The notes below the pieces were generated by a model that saw nothing but the letters and a program-made list of their open reading frames with translations, did no database searches and was not told the origin of the DNA. From a bacterium (GTDB lineage Bacteria; Patescibacteriota; Patescibacteriia; SG8-24), in contig JAHFIV010000003.1 in the NCBI GenBank assembly GCA_023246225.1, positions 1 through 56,591 on the forward strand: a stretch of DNA of 56,591 nt. The letters run 5' to 3'. Shown piece by piece: positions 2,430-12,205 of this stretch (the first letter of the stretch is position 1; each line of letters begins with the position of its first letter). The position numbers and the translations under genes were made by a program.

Positions 2430-2891
2430 TTATTCGCAAAGAGAATCACTCTCGGGAGCGAACGCGACGTGCAGTTTCCGTGCAGCGCGCACGAGTATTT
2501 TTCTTTCGCTCTCAGTAAATTCTTTCAACGCGCTCTTTATTTTTCCGAGCGCGGCACGGCGCGCTTGCCACTCAAGCTTCGTGCCGTCTTTGGTGAGTAC
2601 AAGCATGTGCTCCCGACGATTCGTTGGGTTCACTTTTCTGGTGACCAATTTCTTTTCGAGAAGTACGTCGATCGATCGGCTGACCGCAGCCTCAGTGAGT
2701 CCGCGCGCGCCCGCGATCGCTTTCTGCGTGGTACCTGATCGTTTCGCAAGCACACGCAAAATAAAAAATTGTGAAAACGTAAGATCGAATCGTTCGGCGA
2801 GCAAACGGTCAACGCTTCGATCCATCGCGAACACCGCCTTATGCAGGGCGATAACAAACGGTTCAACGTAGTCTTGCTGTACGAGTGGCAT
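2430..2891 (-). CDS. MarR family transcriptional regulator
   Basis: LTFSQFFIL...AAVSRSIDVLLEKKLVTR...NRR...LTKDG winged-helix pattern; precedes efflux genes. Confidence 0.9.
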   Translation of the reverse strand: MPLVQQDYVEPFVIALHKAVFAMDRSVDRLLAERFDLTFSQFFILRVLAKRSGTTQKAIAGARGLTEAAVSRSIDVLLEKKLVTRKVNPTNRREHMLVLTKDGTKLEWQARRAALGKIKSALKEFTESERKILVRAARKLHVAFAPESDSLCE

Positions 2892-2912: not shown

Positions 2913-2942
2913 CAATGATGGTTAACATGTCAACTATCATTG
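2913..2942. promoter_or_regulatory. Near-perfect 30-bp palindrome (probable MarR operator) overlapping the -35 TTGACA of the marR promoter
   Basis: CAATGATGGTTAACATGTCAACTATCATTG, 26/30 self-complementary; minus strand reads TTGACA-N18-TAAGGT. Confidence 0.65.
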
Positions 2943-4019
2943 CAGATGAGCGGCGTTCTTCTCGCAGCCACGATGAATGATTTTCTCTCTCATCGTATGA
3001 GAAAGTGCCGAGGCTCGGCAATGACAAGTGAGACCGAGATACGATGGGAGATTCTTTTCGTCCACCTTTCGTAACATGCGTCGTTTTGTTGTTGTTCGAA
3101 GAATACGAAAATTCGGAAAACAGATGTACCCAAGAAAATCAACGCCCCGGTGGTACCGTTTTAAGATGATCTTTTTCGGATGGAGAGAAAGACGGAGGCG
3201 GGTTTCAAGAAATTCCCCTATAACAGGGAGCAGCTTCTCTAAGAACGCGCGATCGTGGTGGAGCAAAACAAAATCATCGCAATACCGCACATACTGTCGC
3301 ATAACGATATAATGCTTCACGAACTGATCGAGTTCATTCAAATACACATTCGCAAAAAGCTGCGAGGTGAGGTTGCCGAGAGGAAACCCTCCATCAGAAA
3401 AACTTCTTACGACATCAGCGATAAGTTCCAGCGTTTTCTGGTCGTGGATGGTCCGACCGATTATTGAGAGCAAAATTTCCTGATCGACCGAGGCAAAAAA
3501 TTTCGCGATATCGAGCTTAAGTACCCAAACCGTTTTCGTATTATTTCTCGAAAGTTTCCACGCCATCCTCGAAAAACGATCGACCGCACGATGAGTCCCC
3601 TTTCTCTTACGACATGACCATGAATCAAAAATGAATTGCCGCTCAAAGAAAGGCTCGATGACGCGGACGATAGCATGGTGAAGTAAACGATCCGCCACTG
3701 AGGCCTTATGTATCTGGCGACGTTTTGGATCGTGCACAACAAAAGCTTCGTAACTCCCATGCTGATACGTGCCGCCACGAAGTTGGTCATAAAGCTTGAA
3801 GATGTTATCTTCAAGTTTCAATGCAAACTCCTGCATGTCACGTCGTCTCATTTTTCCTCGCTGGAACTCATTCCATGCCGCAAACAAATTCTCTAATGAA
3901 ATAATCCGTTCAAAAATTGTTTTATGAATACTCTGACCCCCCCCGATGCAACTTTGTCCCTTCCGATTTTCCATACTTTCTATGGCTTTCTCCGCCGGCT
4001 TGCGGTAGTACTGGACCAT
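2937..4019 (-). CDS. DGR reverse transcriptase
   Basis: DPKRRQI, DRLLHHA, KGTHRA, LKLDIAKFF, GFPLGNLTSQLFANVYL (DGR-type SQ motif), YVRYCDD, GVDFLGY; true start may be ATG 3974. Confidence 0.95.
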   Translation of the reverse strand: MVQYYRKPAEKAIESMENRKGQSCIGGGQSIHKTIFERIISLENLFAAWNEFQRGKMRRRDMQEFALKLEDNIFKLYDQLRGGTYQHGSYEAFVVHDPKRRQIHKASVADRLLHHAIVRVIEPFFERQFIFDSWSCRKRKGTHRAVDRFSRMAWKLSRNNTKTVWVLKLDIAKFFASVDQEILLSIIGRTIHDQKTLELIADVVRSFSDGGFPLGNLTSQLFANVYLNELDQFVKHYIVMRQYVRYCDDFVLLHHDRAFLEKLLPVIGEFLETRLRLSLHPKKIILKRYHRGVDFLGYICFPNFRILRTTTKRRMLRKVDEKNLPSYLGLTCHCRASALSHTMREKIIHRGCEKNAAHLQ

Positions 4020-4313
4020 GTTCCCAAAAAATCACGCTACACTCTCGGCGCAAAGATTGATACCACGTCACTCGACGTTTTCTAACTCATCCTCAGAGCC
4101 AACCAGGCACGTGGTGAACAACGTCTCGCATTGCTCCACGAAACAAGCGTCGCGCTCGATCTTCTCAAAATCCTCATCCGCCTCGCAAAAGACACGAAAT
4201 CGCTCTCAGAAACACACTACATCTTGCTCCAAGAACCGCTCCAGAAAACCGGAAAAATGCTCGGCGGATGGATAAAAAATCCAGAGGCTTCACGAACAAA
4301 GAATCCCGCGTGA
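3924..4313 (+). pseudogene. avd: DGR accessory variability determinant (Avd/bAvd-like four-helix bundle) with in-frame TAA at 4083-4085
   Basis: Manual translation from ATG 3924: MNTLTPPDATLSLPIFHTFYGFLRRLAVVLDHVPKKSRYTLGAKIDTTSLDVF*LILRAN...LDLLKILIRLAKD...GKMLGGWIK; PKxxRYTLG and GKMLGGW are Avd-like motifs. Confidence 0.85.
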
Positions 4314-4327
4314 ATGCGGGTTCTTTG
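4297..4327. other. Stem-loop just 3' of TR in the minus-strand RNA, overlapping the avd stop codon
   Basis: CAAAGAA-T-CCCGC-GTGAAT-GCGGG-TTCTTTG. Confidence 0.6.
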
Positions 4328-4333
4328 CGAGAG

Positions 4334-4444
4334 ACGATCGAGAGGACGGAAACCGATGTTCTCGTTCCGGTTGTCGGCGTCGTTCCAGTTGACGTTCGAG
4401 AGACCACCGTTGTCCGAGTTCCCACCGTAGAGACGGTTCCGGCT
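4334..4444 (-). repeat. DGR template repeat (TR), 111 bp
   Basis: Reads SRNRLYGGNSDNGGLSNVNWNDADNRNENIGFRPLDR; 9 AAC codons and 26 adenines, none in codon position 3; ungapped match to VR1 and VR2. Confidence 0.96.
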
Positions 4445-4681
4445 CCCTTGCGCGTCATGCCATCTGCGGCAGCACGATTTCATCACCGTTTCCGGCGTAG
4501 TCATCGTTGTATAAGTATGTGGCGACGTATCTTTTGTGCGCGTCGTCTCACACGACGCGCCCGCGCAAGCATCACGCACATCGTTTCTCTTAAAAATGGC
4601 GAACCGGATGTCCGTAGACCCAGTTTCATTAGCCAAAAAAATTCTATCGCCCAAAGGTCCAAAGGTCAAAGGCCAAAGAAC

Positions 4682-7498
4682 CTATTTTTTTGAAGAGAAA
4701 CGACCGAGAGGACGGAAACCGATGCGCTCGTAACGGTCGCCGGCGTCGCGCCAGTCGACGCCCGAGAGACCACCGAAGACCGAGTACCCACCGCAGAGAC
4801 GGCTCCGGCTGTCATATACGTCTTCAAACCACTCATACGTATCGGTGTTTCCCCATTCGGGATACAACGCATTGCCAAGATAATTGTTGTCAATCGCTCG
4901 CGGCAAATGAAACGCCTCGACTGGAATGCCGATCGCATGAGCAAGAGCACTTCGAAGCGCCGGTTGCTCCAAATCTTGAGGACTCAAATTAAAACGCGAA
5001 CCAGGAATTTTGTAATTCTGAACGAACTGTCTATTTCGAAAATCTGCAAGTACAGGTTCAAAAATATCATCAGTATATCGTTGATCGCCATTTTGATACT
5101 GTGGCTTACGGCGTGTATCTACAAGAAGCCATGCGCCAGAAAGTTTGGCAGCGTCAGGTGGAAGTTTCCCCGTCTTTATCGCGTCAAAAAACTCAATCCC
5201 GTATTGCTCTCCAGGAGTAAATTTTTTACCGGGTTTATTTTTCCAACCAGGAAAATTGCTGTCTTCCTTCATTTCTACCGCGGGCACAAAATGCAACTCA
5301 AACCCTTTTTCTTTCCATTCTTTATACTTTTCTGGAGTGGCCTCTGGAGGGAGTGGTGGCACTTCGATCTCTGCGCCAAAAAACTTTTTAATCGTTTCGC
5401 GCTCGCGGTTTATGAGTTCGCGGAATTCTCCTCGGGATTCATGGCCTTCGATACGACGCCGTGCTTCAGGCGGTAGTTTCCCCATGTCAAGCCCATCGAG
5501 AATCGCTTGAGGATCCACGGCCTCCCATGCAAGAAATTGCTCCACGGAAACCAAACGAGTTTTCTCCTTGCGTGCATCCTCCGAATGCACGACGAACTCC
5601 CCTGCGTCAGTGCGTCCAAGCACACGCCAACGCTTCGCCTGTGCACCAGAACCCTCGATACGACTCGCGTCGACCGGCGCTTCCGCGGTCCCCTCGATTG
5701 TATACTTCACGCTTTTCCCTTTAATCACCGCATTACCGTCGGTGATTTTCGGGGTGATCAATTCCTCATAGCGAACACGCGGAGAAAAAAGTCCGATTTC
5801 GCGAGGAGTAAGGACATGGAACTCTGCTTCGGGCTTTTTCTCTCGCGCATCTACCTTTTTGCCAAGCAAGTTAAAATGACCAAAAAAATCTCGCACAAGT
5901 TCGGCATCCGCTTGTGTAATGTCAGCTTCTGCAAGTTTTGCCTCTATTTTTTCTACGAGAAGCTCTTCGAGCGAACCGGTGTATCCTTCCTCAGCAGCAC
6001 GATGAAGCCAGCCGAGGACGACGCCTGGATCCAGCACAAACTTTGCAAGAAATTGCGCCTCTCCCCTATCCTTCAGCACGGTTTCTTGACGAGAAAGACT
6101 CTTGTAGAGCTCCGACAATCCACTCGCGAATCGCCAAACCGCGCCGCCTTTTTTCGGATCCTCATCGAGTTCCCGAATTTTCTTTTTGCCCTCGACACGA
6201 TATTTCCACGCAGGTGAAAGTTCGTCGGTTGCAAAACGAAGACGACGATTCTTGTCCATGAGCGCAGCGAGCATCGCTTCGTAAAGTTCAGGGTTGTTTT
6301 CGCTCTGTTCGGGATAAGGAACGGTCACCGCAGCACCAAATTCTCTTCTCACCGCTACATCGATCGGTTCACGGTCATATCGATCAGAGGATGGGTTACC
6401 GGCCGCCACAAAAAGATAGTTGGGCTGCACATACTGCTCGCCGATGAGCGGAAGGCTCACTTTGTGCCCTGGACGAACACCGGAAACCGTTTTAATGATT
6501 TCCATCTGCACTGCACGCTCGCGTTCATTGAACTCGTCATCAAAATATAAGCCGCCTTGATGACGCGGCTTAACGTCTGCACTCGTTTCTTTGCCGGTCA
6601 GCGCCTGTGCGAGCGCTTTAAAATCAAGTTGAGTCACCATCCCCTCGCCCACACCCTGCTTCACGAGAGAATCTTGCAACCGCGTCGATGGACCACCTTG
6701 CGCCCTGAACGGTTCCATGCCCGTGAGAGACTTCGCGGTCGCCCGCACAAGTGTCGACTTACCTGTCCCCGACTCGCCAAGGAGAAGTACCGGGCGACCG
6801 GTAAGTGCGACGGTTTCGATCTGCTCGAGTATGTCACGACGGCTCGGAAGCCACATGAATCCCTGTGACTCAAATTCAGCGCTGTACCCGGACACGCGCT
6901 CATAGGAAGCCTGGGCAGCGAGGAGAGGAAATTCTGCAAGCATCTCCGTCATATCCCTACGCGCCTTGGGTAACTCGCGAGTAATCTTTTGATACGCAAA
7001 CTTATCCATCTCGCTCACCCGACCGCCCCGCTGTTCGAAGAGTCGACGGCTCGCTGCGTCAAAATCCTCCTCGAGACCACGAACATGCTCACGCAGCGCG
7101 CGAAATTTCTCATAGCTCCCGTTCATCAATTTTTTCTCCTCAGCGTGTCGATCGATTTCAGCAAGGTACGTCGCCTTGGTCTCCGGATCGTTGTACAGCG
7201 AGAGGAAAAACCCTAGTTTCTGATTATCTTTTTCTTCATTTTCGGCGAGGTTCTCTTTGCTCCCCGCATGCGCAACATCGGATTTCACTTCTTGAAACAT
7301 GCTCCACAACATTTCTGCGCGGTGTGCTGGCGAAAGAAAGTCTGCGGGAGTGGCGGCTGATTCTTTCCCCGGAACGATATGACGCTGTTCCAAAAAGAAA
7401 CCGATCGGATCAGCAGCAAGCTCATCTCTGTGCTCGACCATGTGGCCAAGTCCTTTTTCGGATTGTTCACTAGACGATCTCTGTTCAGACATACTCAT
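4682..7498 (-). CDS. DGR target 1: MoxR/AAA_5-type AAA+ ATPase fused to a C-terminal variable (probable CLec-fold) domain
   Basis: Walker A GESGTGKS, Walker B YFDDEFN, sensor-1 AAGNP, DVAVRREF; ends in VR1 (GFRP motif); start trimmed to MSMSEQ. Confidence 0.9.
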   Translation of the reverse strand: MSMSEQRSSSEQSEKGLGHMVEHRDELAADPIGFFLEQRHIVPGKESAATPADFLSPAHRAEMLWSMFQEVKSDVAHAGSKENLAENEEKDNQKLGFFLSLYNDPETKATYLAEIDRHAEEKKLMNGSYEKFRALREHVRGLEEDFDAASRRLFEQRGGRVSEMDKFAYQKITRELPKARRDMTEMLAEFPLLAAQASYERVSGYSAEFESQGFMWLPSRRDILEQIETVALTGRPVLLLGESGTGKSTLVRATAKSLTGMEPFRAQGGPSTRLQDSLVKQGVGEGMVTQLDFKALAQALTGKETSADVKPRHQGGLYFDDEFNERERAVQMEIIKTVSGVRPGHKVSLPLIGEQYVQPNYLFVAAGNPSSDRYDREPIDVAVRREFGAAVTVPYPEQSENNPELYEAMLAALMDKNRRLRFATDELSPAWKYRVEGKKKIRELDEDPKKGGAVWRFASGLSELYKSLSRQETVLKDRGEAQFLAKFVLDPGVVLGWLHRAAEEGYTGSLEELLVEKIEAKLAEADITQADAELVRDFFGHFNLLGKKVDAREKKPEAEFHVLTPREIGLFSPRVRYEELITPKITDGNAVIKGKSVKYTIEGTAEAPVDASRIEGSGAQAKRWRVLGRTDAGEFVVHSEDARKEKTRLVSVEQFLAWEAVDPQAILDGLDMGKLPPEARRRIEGHESRGEFRELINRERETIKKFFGAEIEVPPLPPEATPEKYKEWKEKGFELHFVPAVEMKEDSNFPGWKNKPGKKFTPGEQYGIEFFDAIKTGKLPPDAAKLSGAWLLVDTRRKPQYQNGDQRYTDDIFEPVLADFRNRQFVQNYKIPGSRFNLSPQDLEQPALRSALAHAIGIPVEAFHLPRAIDNNYLGNALYPEWGNTDTYEWFEDVYDSRSRLCGGYSVFGGLSGVDWRDAGDRYERIGFRPLGRFSSKK
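4700..4810 (-). repeat. DGR variable repeat VR1
   Basis: 18 mismatches to TR over 111 nt, 17 at TR adenines. Confidence 0.96.
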
Positions 7499-7554
7499 GC
7501 TTGAAGTACGAAATTTGATCGGACCAAAGGTCAAAAGACCGAAGGCCAAAGAAC

Positions 7555-8538
7555 CTATTTTTTTGAAGAGAAACGACCGAGAGGACGGAAACCGACGTCC
7601 TCGTGCCGGCCGGCGGCGCCGACCCAGTAGACGTACGAGAGACCACCGCCGTCCGAGTTCCCACCGTAGAGACGGTCCCGGCTATCGGCTGTTTTGTCTT
7701 TGAGCCATTCAAGAGTGGTGGTGTTTCCCCATTCAGGCATATGCATGTGCATGAGGAGACTGTTTTCAATTGCGTAGGGAAGGTCGAGGTCTTTGACGTT
7801 CACGCCTAAGGACGCAGCAAGCGCGGTCTGTACCTCTGGCTTTTCAAAATCAGAGCCGCGGATGCCGAAACGGGACTTGGGGTTGGGAACAGCATCGTAG
7901 GGCTCAATGACGGGGTTTGCTCCTCTGCGGAGCGTCTCAAGCGCTTTGCCGATCACCTCATCGTTTGGATATATTTGTGCGCCATTGTCATAGTTCGGTT
8001 TTTGCCTGGTATCGACAAGCATCCATCCCCCAGGGAGTTCGCTGTGGATTTCTTCAGGACCTTTTTCTGGTTTCTTCGTCCATCCAGGGAGCTCTTTCCA
8101 CTTTTTTTTGCCATCTGGGCCGGTTTCACTGAGAACAACGGGGGGAAGATAGTGGAGTTCAAACCCTTTTTCTTTCCATTCCTTGTACTTTTCTGGAGTG
8201 ATCTCTTGTGGGAGTGGCGGAATTTCGATCTCTTTGCCGAAAAGGGTTTTGAGTGCTTCTTGCTCGCGATTGATGAGTTCACGGAATTCAGGACCGGTCT
8301 CCGCAGCCTCCTTCACTTCGATCATCCCCTTCATTTCATCGACCAGGTTCTTAAAACGAAGCTCCTCGGCGGGGGTCGAGGCGCGACTTATGATTTTATC
8401 GCGAAGTGTGGCGATTTCTTCGGCACGCTTCGTGAGTGCAACGGTTTCATCAGCCGACCAGTCGAGTGGAACTGAGGGCTCCGTCGACGGCACCATTCTC
8501 GCTGGCTCCCGCGTCGGTTGTCCTTCGGGATGTGGCAT
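7555..8538 (-). CDS. DGR target 2: stand-alone variable domain protein, paralogous to the C-terminus of target 1
   Basis: Shares EFRELINRE...PPLPxExTPEKYKEWKEKGFELH, DTRxKPxYxNGxQxY, PEWGNT and GFRPLGRFSSKK with target 1; ends in VR2. Confidence 0.9.
   Translation of the reverse strand: MPHPEGQPTREPARMVPSTEPSVPLDWSADETVALTKRAEEIATLRDKIISRASTPAEELRFKNLVDEMKGMIEVKEAAETGPEFRELINREQEALKTLFGKEIEIPPLPQEITPEKYKEWKEKGFELHYLPPVVLSETGPDGKKKWKELPGWTKKPEKGPEEIHSELPGGWMLVDTRQKPNYDNGAQIYPNDEVIGKALETLRRGANPVIEPYDAVPNPKSRFGIRGSDFEKPEVQTALAASLGVNVKDLDLPYAIENSLLMHMHMPEWGNTTTLEWLKDKTADSRDRLYGGNSDGGGLSYVYWVGAAGRHEDVGFRPLGRFSSKK
7573..7683 (-). repeat. DGR variable repeat VR2
   Basis: 15 mismatches to TR over 111 nt, all at TR adenines. 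Confidence 0.96.
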
Positions 8539-8539
8539 A

Positions 8540-11122
8540 TTATTTTTTCTTCGGTTTTCCTTTCACGCGCGCAGGGTAGAGCGCCTGAAAAACCGCGATG
8601 GTATCCGCAGCGACCGCAGGTGCGAGTGTACCGAGTGTTTCGATAACAGAAGCGTTGGGAGCATAGATCGCTTTGATCGGCTTCGCCGCGGCGGTCATAC
8701 CATAACCGTACACAACGGTACCAGCTTCACGAAGCTCTCGCAAAGCGGTTTTCGTTGCCGAAGGATTATTCGAACCACCGTCGAGGAACGCCGCAACGAA
8801 CGCGATCGGTGGCTGTTCGCCTGGTTTATGCTGCGTTTTATCCCAAACCCCACGCTCGCTCAAAATCTTTGTCTTGATCTCCGCGAGCGCCGCATGATCT
8901 GGCGTGCCGCCACCCGCGGTGCGCATAAGGGCTTGGTACAGCGCGAACTGTTCTTTTGGTCCCCATGTTCCCGCAAGCGGAAGGTCGGTCGAGACGTCGC
9001 CGTGGATACTGGTAAGCTGAATACGAATAGGGAGCGGAGCGGTGAGACGACCCTGCGACTGCCGAGAAAGAAACGCGCACTGCATGAGCGAATCCACATA
9101 GACCATCACGGCGTCACGTTGGAGATCGGCTTTGACACGGCCGGACTCGGGGTCGATTTCAGACATGGAACCAGAGAGGTCGGCCATCAGATAGACATCG
9201 ATGCCACCGAAAAGTTTTTGTCTTTTTTCGCGCGTACGGATGCGCTCAAAGCCAGACACATCACGCTCGCCAGCCTTGTGGTCGATCATTGCGAGCGCGG
9301 GATCGGTAAGTTCGTCGCCTTCGCTCATTCTGACCGGTCCTTGGTACTCACGCTTTTCTCCTTTACGACTCTGGACAAGCTGACGCCACGCCGCGATCAG
9401 TTTTTGCTGAATGCGCTCTCCTTTTTCGTCTTTCATTTCGCGCACGCGCTGAAACATCTCGCGAACTTCTTTCGCTTGCTGTTCCGAGCAACCGGCTTCG
9501 CGCGCGAACGTTTCGGTGACGCGTGCTTCGCTTGTCTTATTTTCTTCGCGCGCATTGTCTTCGGATCGCTCAAGAGATTCGATCAATTCTTCAAGATCCT
9601 CATCGCTCATGATCTCCGCTTCTTGTTCGCCATAGTCCCCCTCACCGGCAGGTTCTTGTTCTTCGTCCGGCCGTTCTTCGTCGAGCGTTGGGTCGTCCTT
9701 CGGTGTCGCGTCAGGATGGAACCATTGTCCAGTATCAGCATCATACACTTCGAGCCAGGCGTGACCGGTACCGCTCGTCATCATCGCCTTCTCAGCCGAC
9801 GCAGCCTTTTTGACATAATGACCGGTCGCGAGACGGCACGGAATGCCCGCTTTCCGAAGTACCGCCGCACCGACAGTGTTCGCCACATCGCAATCGGCTT
9901 TCTTCTCTTGCCAAATGCGTTCGAAGTATGCCGCAGGGTCCGCACGATAGACTGCGTTCATGCTGCTGTCGTTCGAGTAGTCCAAATGCTCACGCACGAC
10001 TTTGAGAAGAAATCTTGCGCGGCCGGCGGCAGAAAGTTTTGTCGCCGCAAGCTCGGTAATTTTTTGTTCGAGCTCAGTAGGGAGACGCGCAGCGATTTTT
10101 TTATCAATTTCCGTTGGCGGCATTTGCGGTGGTGTGCCTTCCTCGCGTTTTCCTATATTGAGACTATAACTAAAAACTCCATCGGCATCGATTTGGAGAT
10201 GAACGTTACCGTTGCCGTCTTCGGTGAGATGGATAGCGTCCGGTGGTGCCGAGGTTTGGAGGGTTCGCGTGTTCACGCTCCAGCCATACGGAACTGGGAT
10301 CGCAATCTTCTGCCGACCACGCACTCTTCCTGTAAGGAGTCGAGAAGAAAGTGTCTCGATTTCCTGCTCGACGAGCGGTTTCTCAACAGTCGGCGCCTTT
10401 TTCCATTTCAGCTCTGCCTCGTCCCATTCGCTGTACAAATTTTGTCGAAAATAACCACCATGAAAAGGAGTGACGGTAAAGTAGGCCTTTGATTCGCCTT
10501 TTTCTTTTTCTTTGGAGAGCTCATCCATCGACGGCGCAAACTCGTCGGTTTCTGGAGGAGGGAGGGAGTCGTCCTGCGGTGCAGGAACGGATTCTTGTTG
10601 TTCTGCATCCGTTTGTTCGGGTTGTTCTGTAGATTCTTTTTGCGCTTCTTCTTCGGGTTCGGGTGGGGATACATCCTGATCGGCGAGCCATTCAACCATT
10701 GAAGAAAGGTGATTTTTCCAAATGTCCACCTTCGTTGCAAATGGCACGTCGTGGGAGGTGAGCAGCTCAAGCGCATTCGCCGGCCCTTCGCTTGTAGCGA
10801 TTGTTTTGAGTCCCTCGAGAAAATCATGCGCCACTGGATCGGCATCGACAGCGGGCACAGCGTTCGGAGTTTCAAGAGCAGCGGCAACTGCGCGAAGAAA
10901 CGCATCAACTCGCGGCAAACCGGTCTCTTTCATTTTTGGCGGCTTGCCGAGCATCGCCGACTCCACAAGTTCACGAAACGGTTTTGGCACCTCCTTTTTC
11001 CATGTCCGATACGCCATCGCCTGTTCGCGGGTATGTATCGCAAAAGCCGGCCTCTCTTGCTCAGAAGTTTCGCGATGCTCCAGCGAAGGCTCGGGCGGTG
11101 ATGTTGGTGAACGATTCGGCAT
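8540..11122 (-). CDS. Transglutaminase-like domain plus C-terminal vWA domain protein
   Basis: Cys-His-Asp triad motifs ADCDVAN, GHAWLEVY, WFHPDATP; MIDAS motifs DLSGSM, GGGTPD, FLDGG; start trimmed to MPNRSP because the longer ORF overlaps dusB. Confidence 0.85.
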   Translation of the reverse strand: MPNRSPTSPPEPSLEHRETSEQERPAFAIHTREQAMAYRTWKKEVPKPFRELVESAMLGKPPKMKETGLPRVDAFLRAVAAALETPNAVPAVDADPVAHDFLEGLKTIATSEGPANALELLTSHDVPFATKVDIWKNHLSSMVEWLADQDVSPPEPEEEAQKESTEQPEQTDAEQQESVPAPQDDSLPPPETDEFAPSMDELSKEKEKGESKAYFTVTPFHGGYFRQNLYSEWDEAELKWKKAPTVEKPLVEQEIETLSSRLLTGRVRGRQKIAIPVPYGWSVNTRTLQTSAPPDAIHLTEDGNGNVHLQIDADGVFSYSLNIGKREEGTPPQMPPTEIDKKIAARLPTELEQKITELAATKLSAAGRARFLLKVVREHLDYSNDSSMNAVYRADPAAYFERIWQEKKADCDVANTVGAAVLRKAGIPCRLATGHYVKKAASAEKAMMTSGTGHAWLEVYDADTGQWFHPDATPKDDPTLDEERPDEEQEPAGEGDYGEQEAEIMSDEDLEELIESLERSEDNAREENKTSEARVTETFAREAGCSEQQAKEVREMFQRVREMKDEKGERIQQKLIAAWRQLVQSRKGEKREYQGPVRMSEGDELTDPALAMIDHKAGERDVSGFERIRTREKRQKLFGGIDVYLMADLSGSMSEIDPESGRVKADLQRDAVMVYVDSLMQCAFLSRQSQGRLTAPLPIRIQLTSIHGDVSTDLPLAGTWGPKEQFALYQALMRTAGGGTPDHAALAEIKTKILSERGVWDKTQHKPGEQPPIAFVAAFLDGGSNNPSATKTALRELREAGTVVYGYGMTAAAKPIKAIYAPNASVIETLGTLAPAVAADTIAVFQALYPARVKGKPKKK

Positions 11123-11248
11123 AAATACCTCGGGGACCTCTGCGAAAGTATGGCAGAGTTGCGCGGTTATTTCAAAAAACCATTCCCGGTTGACCGCGCG
11201 GCTGTTTTTGGATAGTATTCTCCAGTTATGAACCCATAGTGAGTTTCT

Positions 11249-12205
11249 ATGTTCCGCTGGTCCGACCTCGAAAACCCGATCGTTGCGCTTTCGCCGATGG
11301 CCGATATGACGGACTCGGCGTTTTGTCGTCTCACGAAGCACATCGGTGCGCCTGTCGTATTTCGCGAAATGATCAGCGCAGAGGGACTCATACACGGAAG
11401 TGAAAAATCGTTTCGCATGGGCGCGTTTCATGCAGAAGAGCGCCCGCTGATCCAGCAATTATTCGGCGCAGATCCGAAAAGTATGGCGGACGCCGTAAAG
11501 ATGATCGATGATGCGTATCATCCTGACGGCTTCGATGTGAACATGGGGTGCCCGGTGTACAAAATCACGTCGAACTTTAACGGGGCTGCGCTGATGAAAG
11601 ACGCCGCGCTCGCGACAAAAATTATCCGTGCGATGAAATCTGCGACACCGTCCCCTGTGTCGGTGAAACTTCGCCTTGGATGGTCGCGACCCGACGAAGT
11701 GCTTGAGTTTATTAAAGTCGTAGAGAGCGCCGGTGCAGACCTCGTGACAATCCATGGAAGAACAAAAGAGCAAGGATATTCCGGCGTCGCAGATTGGGAG
11801 ATGATCGGTCGTGCAAAAGCGCGCGCGTCGATCCCCGTGCTCGCGAACGGCGACATTCACACTCCCGAGGCCGCAGTGAAAGCGCTCGCCGTTTCTGGTT
11901 GCGACGGCGTACTGATCGCACGCGGCGCGCTCGGCAATCCGTGGATCTTCACACAAATGCACGCAGCGCTCCGTGGTGCACCGTGGACCGTACCGACGCT
12001 TGCGGAACGGATCGCGGTCGTGCGCGAACATGCGCGTCTGCACGTGACGCAATACGAGGAGCATCACGATCTCACCACATTCCGCAAACACCTCACGTGG
12101 TATTTCAAAGGAATCCCCGGCGCAAAAGCGCACCGTGATCGATTAGTAAAAGTCACGACGCTCGAAGAGCTCGACGTCATTCTTGATGAGCTCAGAAGTT
12201 CCTAA
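11249..12205 (+). CDS. dusB: tRNA-dihydrouridine synthase
   Basis: LSPMAD, QLFG, DVNMGCP, VSVKLRLG, TIHGRT, ANGDI, ARGALGNPW. Confidence 0.92.
   Translation: MFRWSDLENPIVALSPMADMTDSAFCRLTKHIGAPVVFREMISAEGLIHGSEKSFRMGAFHAEERPLIQQLFGADPKSMADAVKMIDDAYHPDGFDVNMGCPVYKITSNFNGAALMKDAALATKIIRAMKSATPSPVSVKLRLGWSRPDEVLEFIKVVESAGADLVTIHGRTKEQGYSGVADWEMIGRAKARASIPVLANGDIHTPEAAVKALAVSGCDGVLIARGALGNPWIFTQMHAALRGAPWTVPTLAERIAVVREHARLHVTQYEEHHDLTTFRKHLTWYFKGIPGAKAHRDRLVKVTTLEELDVILDELRSS

Follow-up and report, generated by a model that had tools for sequence, protein, structure and literature searches.

A predicted two-target diversity-generating retroelement in a Patescibacteriota genome and a simple-sequence repeat at the start of its accessory gene avd

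The locus described here raises the question of whether it holds a complete diversity-generating retroelement (DGR), as its initial annotation proposed, and of what might turn such an element on or off. It occupies positions 2937–8538 of the window, the 56,591-nt stretch of DNA analysed here (contig JAHFIV010000003.1 of GenBank assembly GCA_023246225.1, from a bacterium of the lineage Patescibacteriota; Patescibacteriia; SG8-24). Judged from the sequence, the region is very probably a chromosomal DGR with the B3 layout typical of bacteria of the candidate phyla radiation (CPR) and with two separately rewritten targets. Read along the minus strand, the order is target gene 2 with its variable repeat (VR2), target gene 1 with VR1, the template repeat (TR), the accessory gene avd, which is inverted and lies on the plus strand, and the reverse transcriptase (RT) gene. 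As a DGR it adds an example to a well-described class; the part worth pursuing is a clade-wide simple-sequence repeat in avd.

The TR lies at 4329–4444 on the minus strand, VR1 at 4695–4810 in the final codons of target 1 (84% identity to the TR) and VR2 at 7568–7683 in the last 39 codons of target 2 (86% identical), both VRs also on the minus strand. An ungapped scan of TR positions 4334–4444 (111 nt) over the region, with mismatches scored on the coding (minus) strand, placed the TR best at 4700, with 93/111 positions identical, and at 7573, with 96/111, the next offsets reaching at most 46/111. In VR1 (4700–4810) there are 18 mismatches to the TR, 17 of them at TR adenines, the sole exception being G4367 to T, a silent change of CGG to CGT. 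In VR2 (7573–7683) all 15 mismatches are at TR adenines. With 26 adenines per 111 TR bases this bias is highly significant in each repeat (one-sided Fisher p = 1.1e-12 for VR1 and 5.7e-12 for VR2). The initial annotation had described one TR with two VRs and mismatches almost all at adenines, and the realignment, giving 17/18 and 15/15, reproduces its counts.

The 26 TR adenines are distributed over codon positions 1, 2 and 3 as 11/15/0, in the codons AAC (nine times), GAC (three times), TAC, ATC, GAG, GAT and AGC, a recount that likewise agrees with the earlier claim that all lie at the first two codon positions. As such, only positions 1 and 2 of about 17 codons would vary and no stop codon could arise. 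Five of the adenines are unaltered in both VRs, six are altered in VR1 only and four in VR2 only; of those altered in both, nine have gone to different bases and two to the same base. Because the two VRs carry differing substitutions, each must have been rewritten separately, and both targets have thus been rewritten at least once, as the initial annotation had held on the grounds now seen in the nine adenines altered to different bases and the ten altered in one VR only.

The homology between TR and VRs extends past 4334 to about 4329/4326 and includes a 28-nt invariant 3′ block (4329–4356) in which the TR differs from both VRs identically, at A4338/G and C4333/T. This block is better read, from its sequence, as a pair of initiation of mutagenic homing sites (IMH in the VRs and IMH* in the TR) than as a site of mutagenesis. 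Since the A4338 to G change is the same in both VRs and falls inside the invariant block, it was assigned to the IMH/IMH* difference, so that this one position leaves the adenine tally of the initial annotation while the rest of it stands; the adenine mismatches then number 16/17 in VR1 and 14/14 in VR2, and the mutagenised part of the TR covers about 4357–4444. Both VRs are in frame at the 3′ ends of their targets, stopping four codons before the stop codon. A TR search of the whole genome (1.12 Mb in 72 contigs) returned the TR itself, VR2 (86%), VR1 (84%) and six other matches of 14–21 nt with E ≥ 0.75, with no remote VR in the assembly.

By analogy with the DGR family, the TR would be transcribed, and the RT together with Avd would copy it into complementary DNA (cDNA) while misreading template adenines. 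Guided by the IMH and IMH* versions of the invariant 3′ block, the cDNA would then take the place of VR1 or VR2, and the ligand-binding face of a domain with a fold like that of formylglycine-generating enzymes (FGEs) and C-type lectins would be randomised.

The RT gene (2937–4019, minus strand) encodes 360 aa from Met1 at 4019, with an alternative start at Met16 (3974), and the product matches Pfam RVT_1 at 9e-21. It carries PLGNLTSQ and YCDD (Y246, D248, D249), and P213, G215, N216, T218, S219, Q220, Y246, D248 and D249 are invariant across nine RT relatives, in keeping with the DGR-type motif reported in the initial annotation. The best solved relative is PDB chain 8ub7_A (328 aa), at 3.3e-45 vs 1.7e-20 for retron-type and group II RTs, so that by best match, rather than by tree, the RT does not group with those of group II introns or retrons, a grouping that the initial annotation had named as speaking against a DGR. 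The database names this chain only 'Reverse transcriptase'; we take it to be the DGR RT of the Bordetella phage (bRT). Many RT relatives in the phylum match in two pieces, with the break at about query residue 208–210 of one 360–430-aa frame, which suggests, on sequence, an insertion between RT motifs in a sub-clade.

Taken together, the features by which a DGR is recognised appear to be present: an adenine-biased TR/VR pair, a DGR-type RT motif, 3′-terminal VRs and an IMH/IMH*-like block. The alternative that the similarity of TR and VRs reflects ordinary divergence or gene conversion between paralogues, or that the RT is that of a group II intron or a retron, is exceedingly improbable. The two targets are indeed 47% identical over 270 aa, but 32/33 mismatches fall at TR adenines on realignment (p about 1e-12 for each VR), where the initial annotation would have been undone by an absence of adenine bias; the TR is a non-coding copy that adjoins RT and avd, and the E-value of the RT against 8ub7_A lies 25 orders of magnitude below that against group II or retron-type RTs. 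An explanation without a retroelement was thus rejected on the adenine-specific mismatches, the RT/avd context and the RT match.

The element is an ordinary DGR for CPR bacteria, two-target DGRs and targets with AAA/P-loop domains having already been published. According to the parts of Wu et al. (2018; PMC5758913) drawn on here, architecture B3 is TR-(avd)-RT with a reverse-strand avd and makes up 90% of the CPR DGR set, two targets are found in 13% of DGRs, and CPR targets with P-loop/Midasin AAA domains form category g1 (UVR4). The window cassette resembles the CPR B3 DGRs of that source in how TR, inverted avd and RT are ordered and oriented, in its 3′ VRs, its AAC-rich TR, its more than one target and its AAA target, and differs from them in the nonsense codon of its avd copy (see below). 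The abundance of DGRs in CPR bacteria, stated in the initial annotation, is seen in the host phylum in the 107/401 sampled genomes with RT relatives at E ≤ 1e-20. The same layout, in which the TR abuts the avd stop and avd stands head to head with RT, was found at 8/10 genome loci (from a search of the order and a contig scan), at 69/80 metagenome loci, with nine of the other 11 having no upstream sequence, and at 28/29 loci of a phylum-wide sample. Mismatches at adenines likewise prevail in relatives, with 19/19 in L034, 15/16 in L035, 16/17 in L036, 18/20 in L009, 14/16 in L033 and 17/19 in L039. The last of these (G028:C63, about 8545–10020) retains only RT residues 123–350 and avd residues 65–118 and looks like a deletion of the head-to-head junction, yet keeps its TR/VR pair. 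A more distant relative in an Anaerolineales metagenome-assembled genome (L010, 5128–6917) has an RT 38% identical to that of the window, with VR, RT, avd and TR on one strand and 18/18 adenine mismatches.

The DGR of Bordetella phage BPP-1 (mtd, avd, TR, brt) shares with the window element the adenine-specific mutagenesis, the IMH/IMH*-like block and the Avd partner. In the window, unlike BPP-1, avd is on the opposite strand between TR and RT, a hairpin follows the TR rather than the VRs, and the place of a phage tail fibre is taken by two chromosomal targets, neither with a signal peptide visible by eye.

Target gene 1 (4682–7549, minus strand) is an open reading frame (ORF) of 955 aa from TTG at 7549, with ATG at 7498 the likely start, and target gene 2 (7555–8538, minus strand) is an ORF of 327 aa with an N-terminal helical hairpin followed by the C-terminal variable domain. 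Residues 253–402 of target 1 match Pfam AAA_5 (28.4 bits, cut-off 22), with a weak match to bpMoxR (E 0.0099, below the family cut-off), and residues 701–955 are 47% identical to residues 77–327 of target 2. The variable domain is fused in target 1 to an AAA+ ATPase that may be MoxR/midasin-like and stands almost alone in target 2. Target 2 has no Pfam or NCBIfam match and no match to PDB sequences at E ≤ 1; none of its 25 homologues has a Pfam domain, and those that are named are hypothetical proteins of Patescibacteria/Uhrbacteria.

An AlphaFold2 model of target 2, built on the homologue alignment, has a mean confidence score (pLDDT) of 76, with the VR loops below 50. Foldseek with this model returned SenA, EgtB, FGEs and the DGR target TvpA at weak E-values (0.013–0.56). 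In a second structural aligner, residues from about 106/124 to 323 align solely with FGE/C-type-lectin-fold proteins, at Z-scores of 5.9 over 162 residues for TvpA (2y3c), 6.3 over 163 for PorK and 5.1–5.4 for FGEs, and every structural match with at least 140 aligned residues, TvpA included, belongs to this fold. The low Foldseek scores count against the assignment, as does the aligner's range, matches with Z < 8, such as the 5–6.3 obtained here, possibly reflecting a merely common arrangement. On the model, the variable domain nevertheless likely adopts an FGE/C-type-lectin-like fold. The targets would then resemble those of the TvpA (Treponema denticola)/FGE type in that an FGE-like domain carries the variable residues in its ~37 final codons, and differ in having no PDB sequence match (E ≤ 1), no Pfam FGE-sulfatase match and other N-terminal partners.

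A further comparison is offered by the vWA-MoxR ternary conflict systems (Kaur et al., 2020, eLife, PMC7159879), in which, in the part of that source used here, the vWA protein is usually the one that carries the DGR-diversified FGS domain, and the hosts are mainly multicellular bacteria. An AAA+ protein, in the window possibly of MoxR/midasin type, a hypervariable FGS-like domain and a DGR occur together in both, and the gene upstream of the window targets (8540–11458, minus strand) encodes a transglutaminase core (1.3e-13) with a weak vWA match (E 0.073). Unlike those systems, the window has the FGS-like domain on the ATPase, and its genome is a CPR one of 1.1 Mb.

The gene avd, which the initial annotation had not seen, is antisense between TR and RT at 3924–4313 (plus strand). 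Read through an internal stop, its product matches Pfam bAvd (PF22296) at 9.2e-16 (58.7 bits, cut-off 40), and its C-terminal piece matches NCBIfam DivGenRetAVD at 4.8e-11. That stop is one of several observations that tell against a complete and active element. An in-frame TAA at 4083–4085 forms avd codon 54, leaving no intact Avd in the cassette, so that the word 'complete' in the initial annotation cannot be kept, and Avd is reportedly an essential DGR protein. The four sequencing runs that contain the region list no adenine-site variants in the VRs, although, being held as contigs only, they are uninformative on activity. In addition, a GC-rich inverted repeat after the VRs was found neither in 7470–7580 nor between 4561 and 4700. 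In the consulted sections of Wu et al. (2018; PMC5758913) such repeats follow the VR in just 34% of DGRs, and their absence is not defining for a DGR. The same sections give about 29% of DGRs without any accessory gene; because many DGRs lack one, the broken avd lowers the claim of activity, not the identity as a DGR. Recoding of TAA was considered and rejected, with TAA, TAG and TGA all terminating long ORFs in the window: the neighbouring gene at 8540–11458 is closed by TAA, both targets by TAG, and RT as well as avd by TGA. TAA being a normal stop in this genome, avd is therefore broken as assembled.

The four runs are groundwater DNA runs of one study, and storage as contigs drops rare variants; no RNA run containing the region is listed. 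Their contigs break at the repeats formed by the VRs and flanks (4693–4698 and 7566–7571). The contigs of run X1 leave a gap from 4028 to 4069, within avd and immediately ahead of the TAA, and the one that starts at 4070 carries one difference that is not listed. In run X2 a 248-nt contig joins 4667–4724 to 7693–7755, has 95 unmatched letters where the VR would be and differs at 8–9 positions in the flanks; it possibly derives from a co-occurring strain with a different VR. For the middle of target 2 (8017–8173), all four runs hold a second contig of 157–158 nt with 12 differences, 3/12 of which are at coding-strand adenines. Since these changes are not adenine-specific, they are strain or paralogue variation and not DGR output.

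A second DGR of the same layout exists in the genome, split over the starts of contigs C20 (1–1600) and C17 (1–1062). Its RT, at the start of C17, is 50% identical to the window RT. On C20 lie an intact avd (3–380), a TR (388–509) and a VR (885–1006) in a 238-aa ORF, the VR having 12 mismatches, 11 of them at coding-strand adenines. The two contig ends share ~41 nt, including a homopolymer that is C9 in one and C10 in the other. The window avd is 37% identical to this intact avd over 84 residues, and in a hand alignment of the translations its TAA falls opposite a Glu. From the sequences, the intact Avd of the second DGR might be supplied in trans to the window cassette, for which it is the only candidate.

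How far the window cassette is still alive can be weighed on this evidence. That it is a dead relic, in which the avd nonsense codon ended mutagenesis for good and the VR differences record past activity, has a little less than an even chance. The in-frame TAA stands in a genome that uses TAA as a stop, the one non-adenine change in VR1 (G4367 to T) is what would be expected if time had passed since the last homing, and decayed relatives such as L039 exist. Against this, RT, TR, both VRs and both target frames are intact, with one non-adenine change in 226 VR bases; the intact avd of the second DGR might act in trans; and the TAA is possibly a minority allele or an error, the X1 contig that starts at 4070 having its one unlisted difference. 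The odds are roughly even between a cassette that is currently silent and one that is served by the second Avd or by a stop-free allele.

The start of avd holds a tract of eight C residues (C8, 3937–3944; G8 on the RT strand), which falls in avd codons 5–7 at the avd/RT junction and lies within the open frame upstream of the RT core, in frame with the avd ATG at 3924 and with RT Met16 (3974). In the 1.12 Mb genome, G/C runs of at least eight occur at five loci, two of which are the avd/RT junctions of the two DGRs. The other three (C2:8216–8224, C21:2455–2462 and C25:24808–24815) lie in copies of an intergenic repeat with GTCATTCC-type words and are possible internal controls for homopolymer stutter. 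The four runs list no indel at the C8 tract, which the X1 contig covering 2900–4027 spans unchanged, and are uninformative on length heterogeneity.

To place this tract among relatives, 119 loci were passed through a single pipeline, of which 103 were usable, 14 having no adjacent divergent avd (mostly for want of upstream sequence) and two having masked bases. The loci are related and so not independent, with two near-duplicate pairs among them, and the second DGR of the window genome is outside the counts. A repeat of units other than A/T was present in the junction at 79/103 loci. Homopolymers made up 65/79 and had lengths of 7 (6 loci), 8 (6), 9 (20), 10 (20), 11 (10), 12 (2) and 14 (1), the remainder being, on the RT strand, (GA)n at ten loci, (GT)n at two, (CT)n at one and (ATTG)n, equivalent to (CAAT)n, at one. 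In the metagenome set, repeats occur at 6.4 per kb of junction vs 0.028 per kb in 322 kb of flanks. At one locus, L146, the junction repeat is (CT)38, spanning 76 nt (~1397–1472), and at L137, which is outside the counts, runs of G17 and C51 lie beside masked bases (~1347–1461).

The reading frame of avd differs between loci with and without the repeat. An upstream ATG is in frame with avd at 22/24 repeat-less loci vs 22/79 repeat loci (Fisher p = 2e-8), so that in the assembled sequence avd is out of frame with the upstream ATG at 57/79 repeat-bearing loci (72%). Scored by frame, repeat loci with an open upstream ATG number 38 for a tract with one base too many, 29 for one with a base too few and 22 in frame, one locus being able to count in more than one frame. 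At 26/79 repeat loci the avd frame has no start codon (ATG, GTG or TTG), whether upstream as far as a stop or in the 24 nt that follow the tract, and at these loci Avd therefore cannot begin after the tract. At L107 the tract is interrupted (ACC CCA CCA CCC CCG) and is read as TPPPP in frame with ATG. The avd and RT genes overlap head to head in several relatives, in which the avd ATG is complementary to a conserved His codon lying a few codons inside RT. Variation in tract length is seen in few pairs, for which assembly error is possible: L077 has G10 and L090 has G9 with identical 150-nt flanks on each side, and the second DGR of the window genome has C9 and C10; L083 and L100 both have G9.

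Simpler accounts of the repeat were considered. A general avd start downstream of the tract was rejected, a start codon within 24 nt after the tract being present in just 26/52 metagenome loci. Poly-C serving merely to encode proline was rejected on the grounds that other repeats, namely (GA)n, (GT)n, (CT)n or (CAAT)n, may occupy the site. The poly-G artefact of two-colour sequencing is unlikely, the tracts being internal, with unique flanks, and found in many assemblies including genomes of 1–10 contigs. Likewise, errors in the assembly consensus are possible at single loci and unlikely as the cause of 72% of loci being out of frame, again with genomes of 1–10 contigs included.

Contingency loci of Haemophilus, Neisseria and Campylobacter carry poly-G/C tracts, (CAAT)n in lic1 and (TA)n between hifA and hifB. 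The avd junctions are like them in having, after the start codon, a G/C run of 7–14 or a di- or tetranucleotide repeat, of variable length and with many out-of-frame alleles. They are unlike them in that the gated gene would be a mutator accessory protein rather than a surface antigen and in being known from sequence alone. We give an even chance to the reading that in B3-type DGRs of the CPR a hypermutable repeat after the avd start flips Avd in and out of frame, making avd a contingency gene. Slipped-strand mispairing at the repeat would place avd in or out of frame and so turn Avd, and hence mutagenesis, on or off; targeted hypermutation would become a heritable stochastic trait that is off in most cells, and many of the 'frameshifted' avd genes in assemblies would represent the off phase and not decay. 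In the window the switch would read 'on' (C8), with avd silenced by the separate nonsense codon. Among the matches listed in the DGR literature, at the level of abstracts, no description of a repeat in avd was found, and the sections of Wu et al. (2018; PMC5758913) available to us make no mention of a 5′ avd repeat or of an overlap of the avd and RT starts.

Two other explanations of the repeat compete with a contingency switch, and each seems to us unlikely. The tract might be a spacer or non-B-DNA element in overlapping divergent promoters or in the RT leader, tuning transcription of RT, avd or both. Its position in relatives, 5–47 nt upstream of the RT start codon and with a recurrent TTAGAAG-like motif after it on the RT strand, would suit such a role, as would the near-random frames (22/79 in frame) that a non-coding tract would give and the ability of poly-G, GA, GT and ATTG repeats to form non-B DNA. 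What such an element would not lead one to expect is the in-frame upstream ATG at 22/24 repeat-less relatives, the TPPPP reading of the interrupted tract at L107, or the 26/79 repeat loci with no avd-frame start upstream or within 24 nt downstream. Alternatively, out-of-frame tracts might be corrected in RNA or at the ribosome, by stuttering of RNA polymerase on C9–C11 or by slippage of tRNA-Pro on CCC-C at a poly-proline stall, in which case Avd would be made at a constant low level whatever the length of the DNA tract and there would be no heritable switching. Tract lengths peak at 9–10 (40/65), about the length of the transcription hybrid, and the tract encodes PPP, both of which fit correction in RNA or at the ribosome; the 14/79 loci with di- or tetranucleotide repeats do not, nor does the lack of a dominant direction of shift among the frame counts (38 long, 29 short and 22 in frame). 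DNA slippage is favoured because it covers homopolymers, di- and tetranucleotide repeats alike.

Of the remaining features of the cassette, a hairpin with 10-nt arms (90% complementary) spans the stop codon of avd together with the TR 3′ end at 4297–4327 and resembles a terminator, with a terminator-like segment on both plus and minus strands at 4305–4320; a hairpin at the avd stop and TR end is frequent in relatives, with z < -2 in 46% of 96 loci. Between the target 1 stop and the TR, a candidate TR promoter on the minus strand (TTGACC-17 nt-TAGAAT, 4641–4669) rests on a consensus pattern match, with 10/12 consensus positions matched and one site found vs 0.7 expected in shuffled sequences. 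Directly downstream of RT on the same strand is a gene for a MarR-family regulator (2430–2891, minus strand; MarR_2 at 4.2e-12).

The cassette is a clear instance of a single TR that serves two paralogous targets, of which one is an AAA+ ATPase. To our knowledge, little has been established about what governs how fast DGRs mutate their targets in nature. If the contingency reading is true, a repeat that gates the accessory protein would be a simple answer to the question of mutagenesis rate for many CPR DGRs. It would also change annotation practice, with the 57/79 out-of-frame avd genes, which would otherwise be called truncated or broken, being read instead as genes in their off phase.

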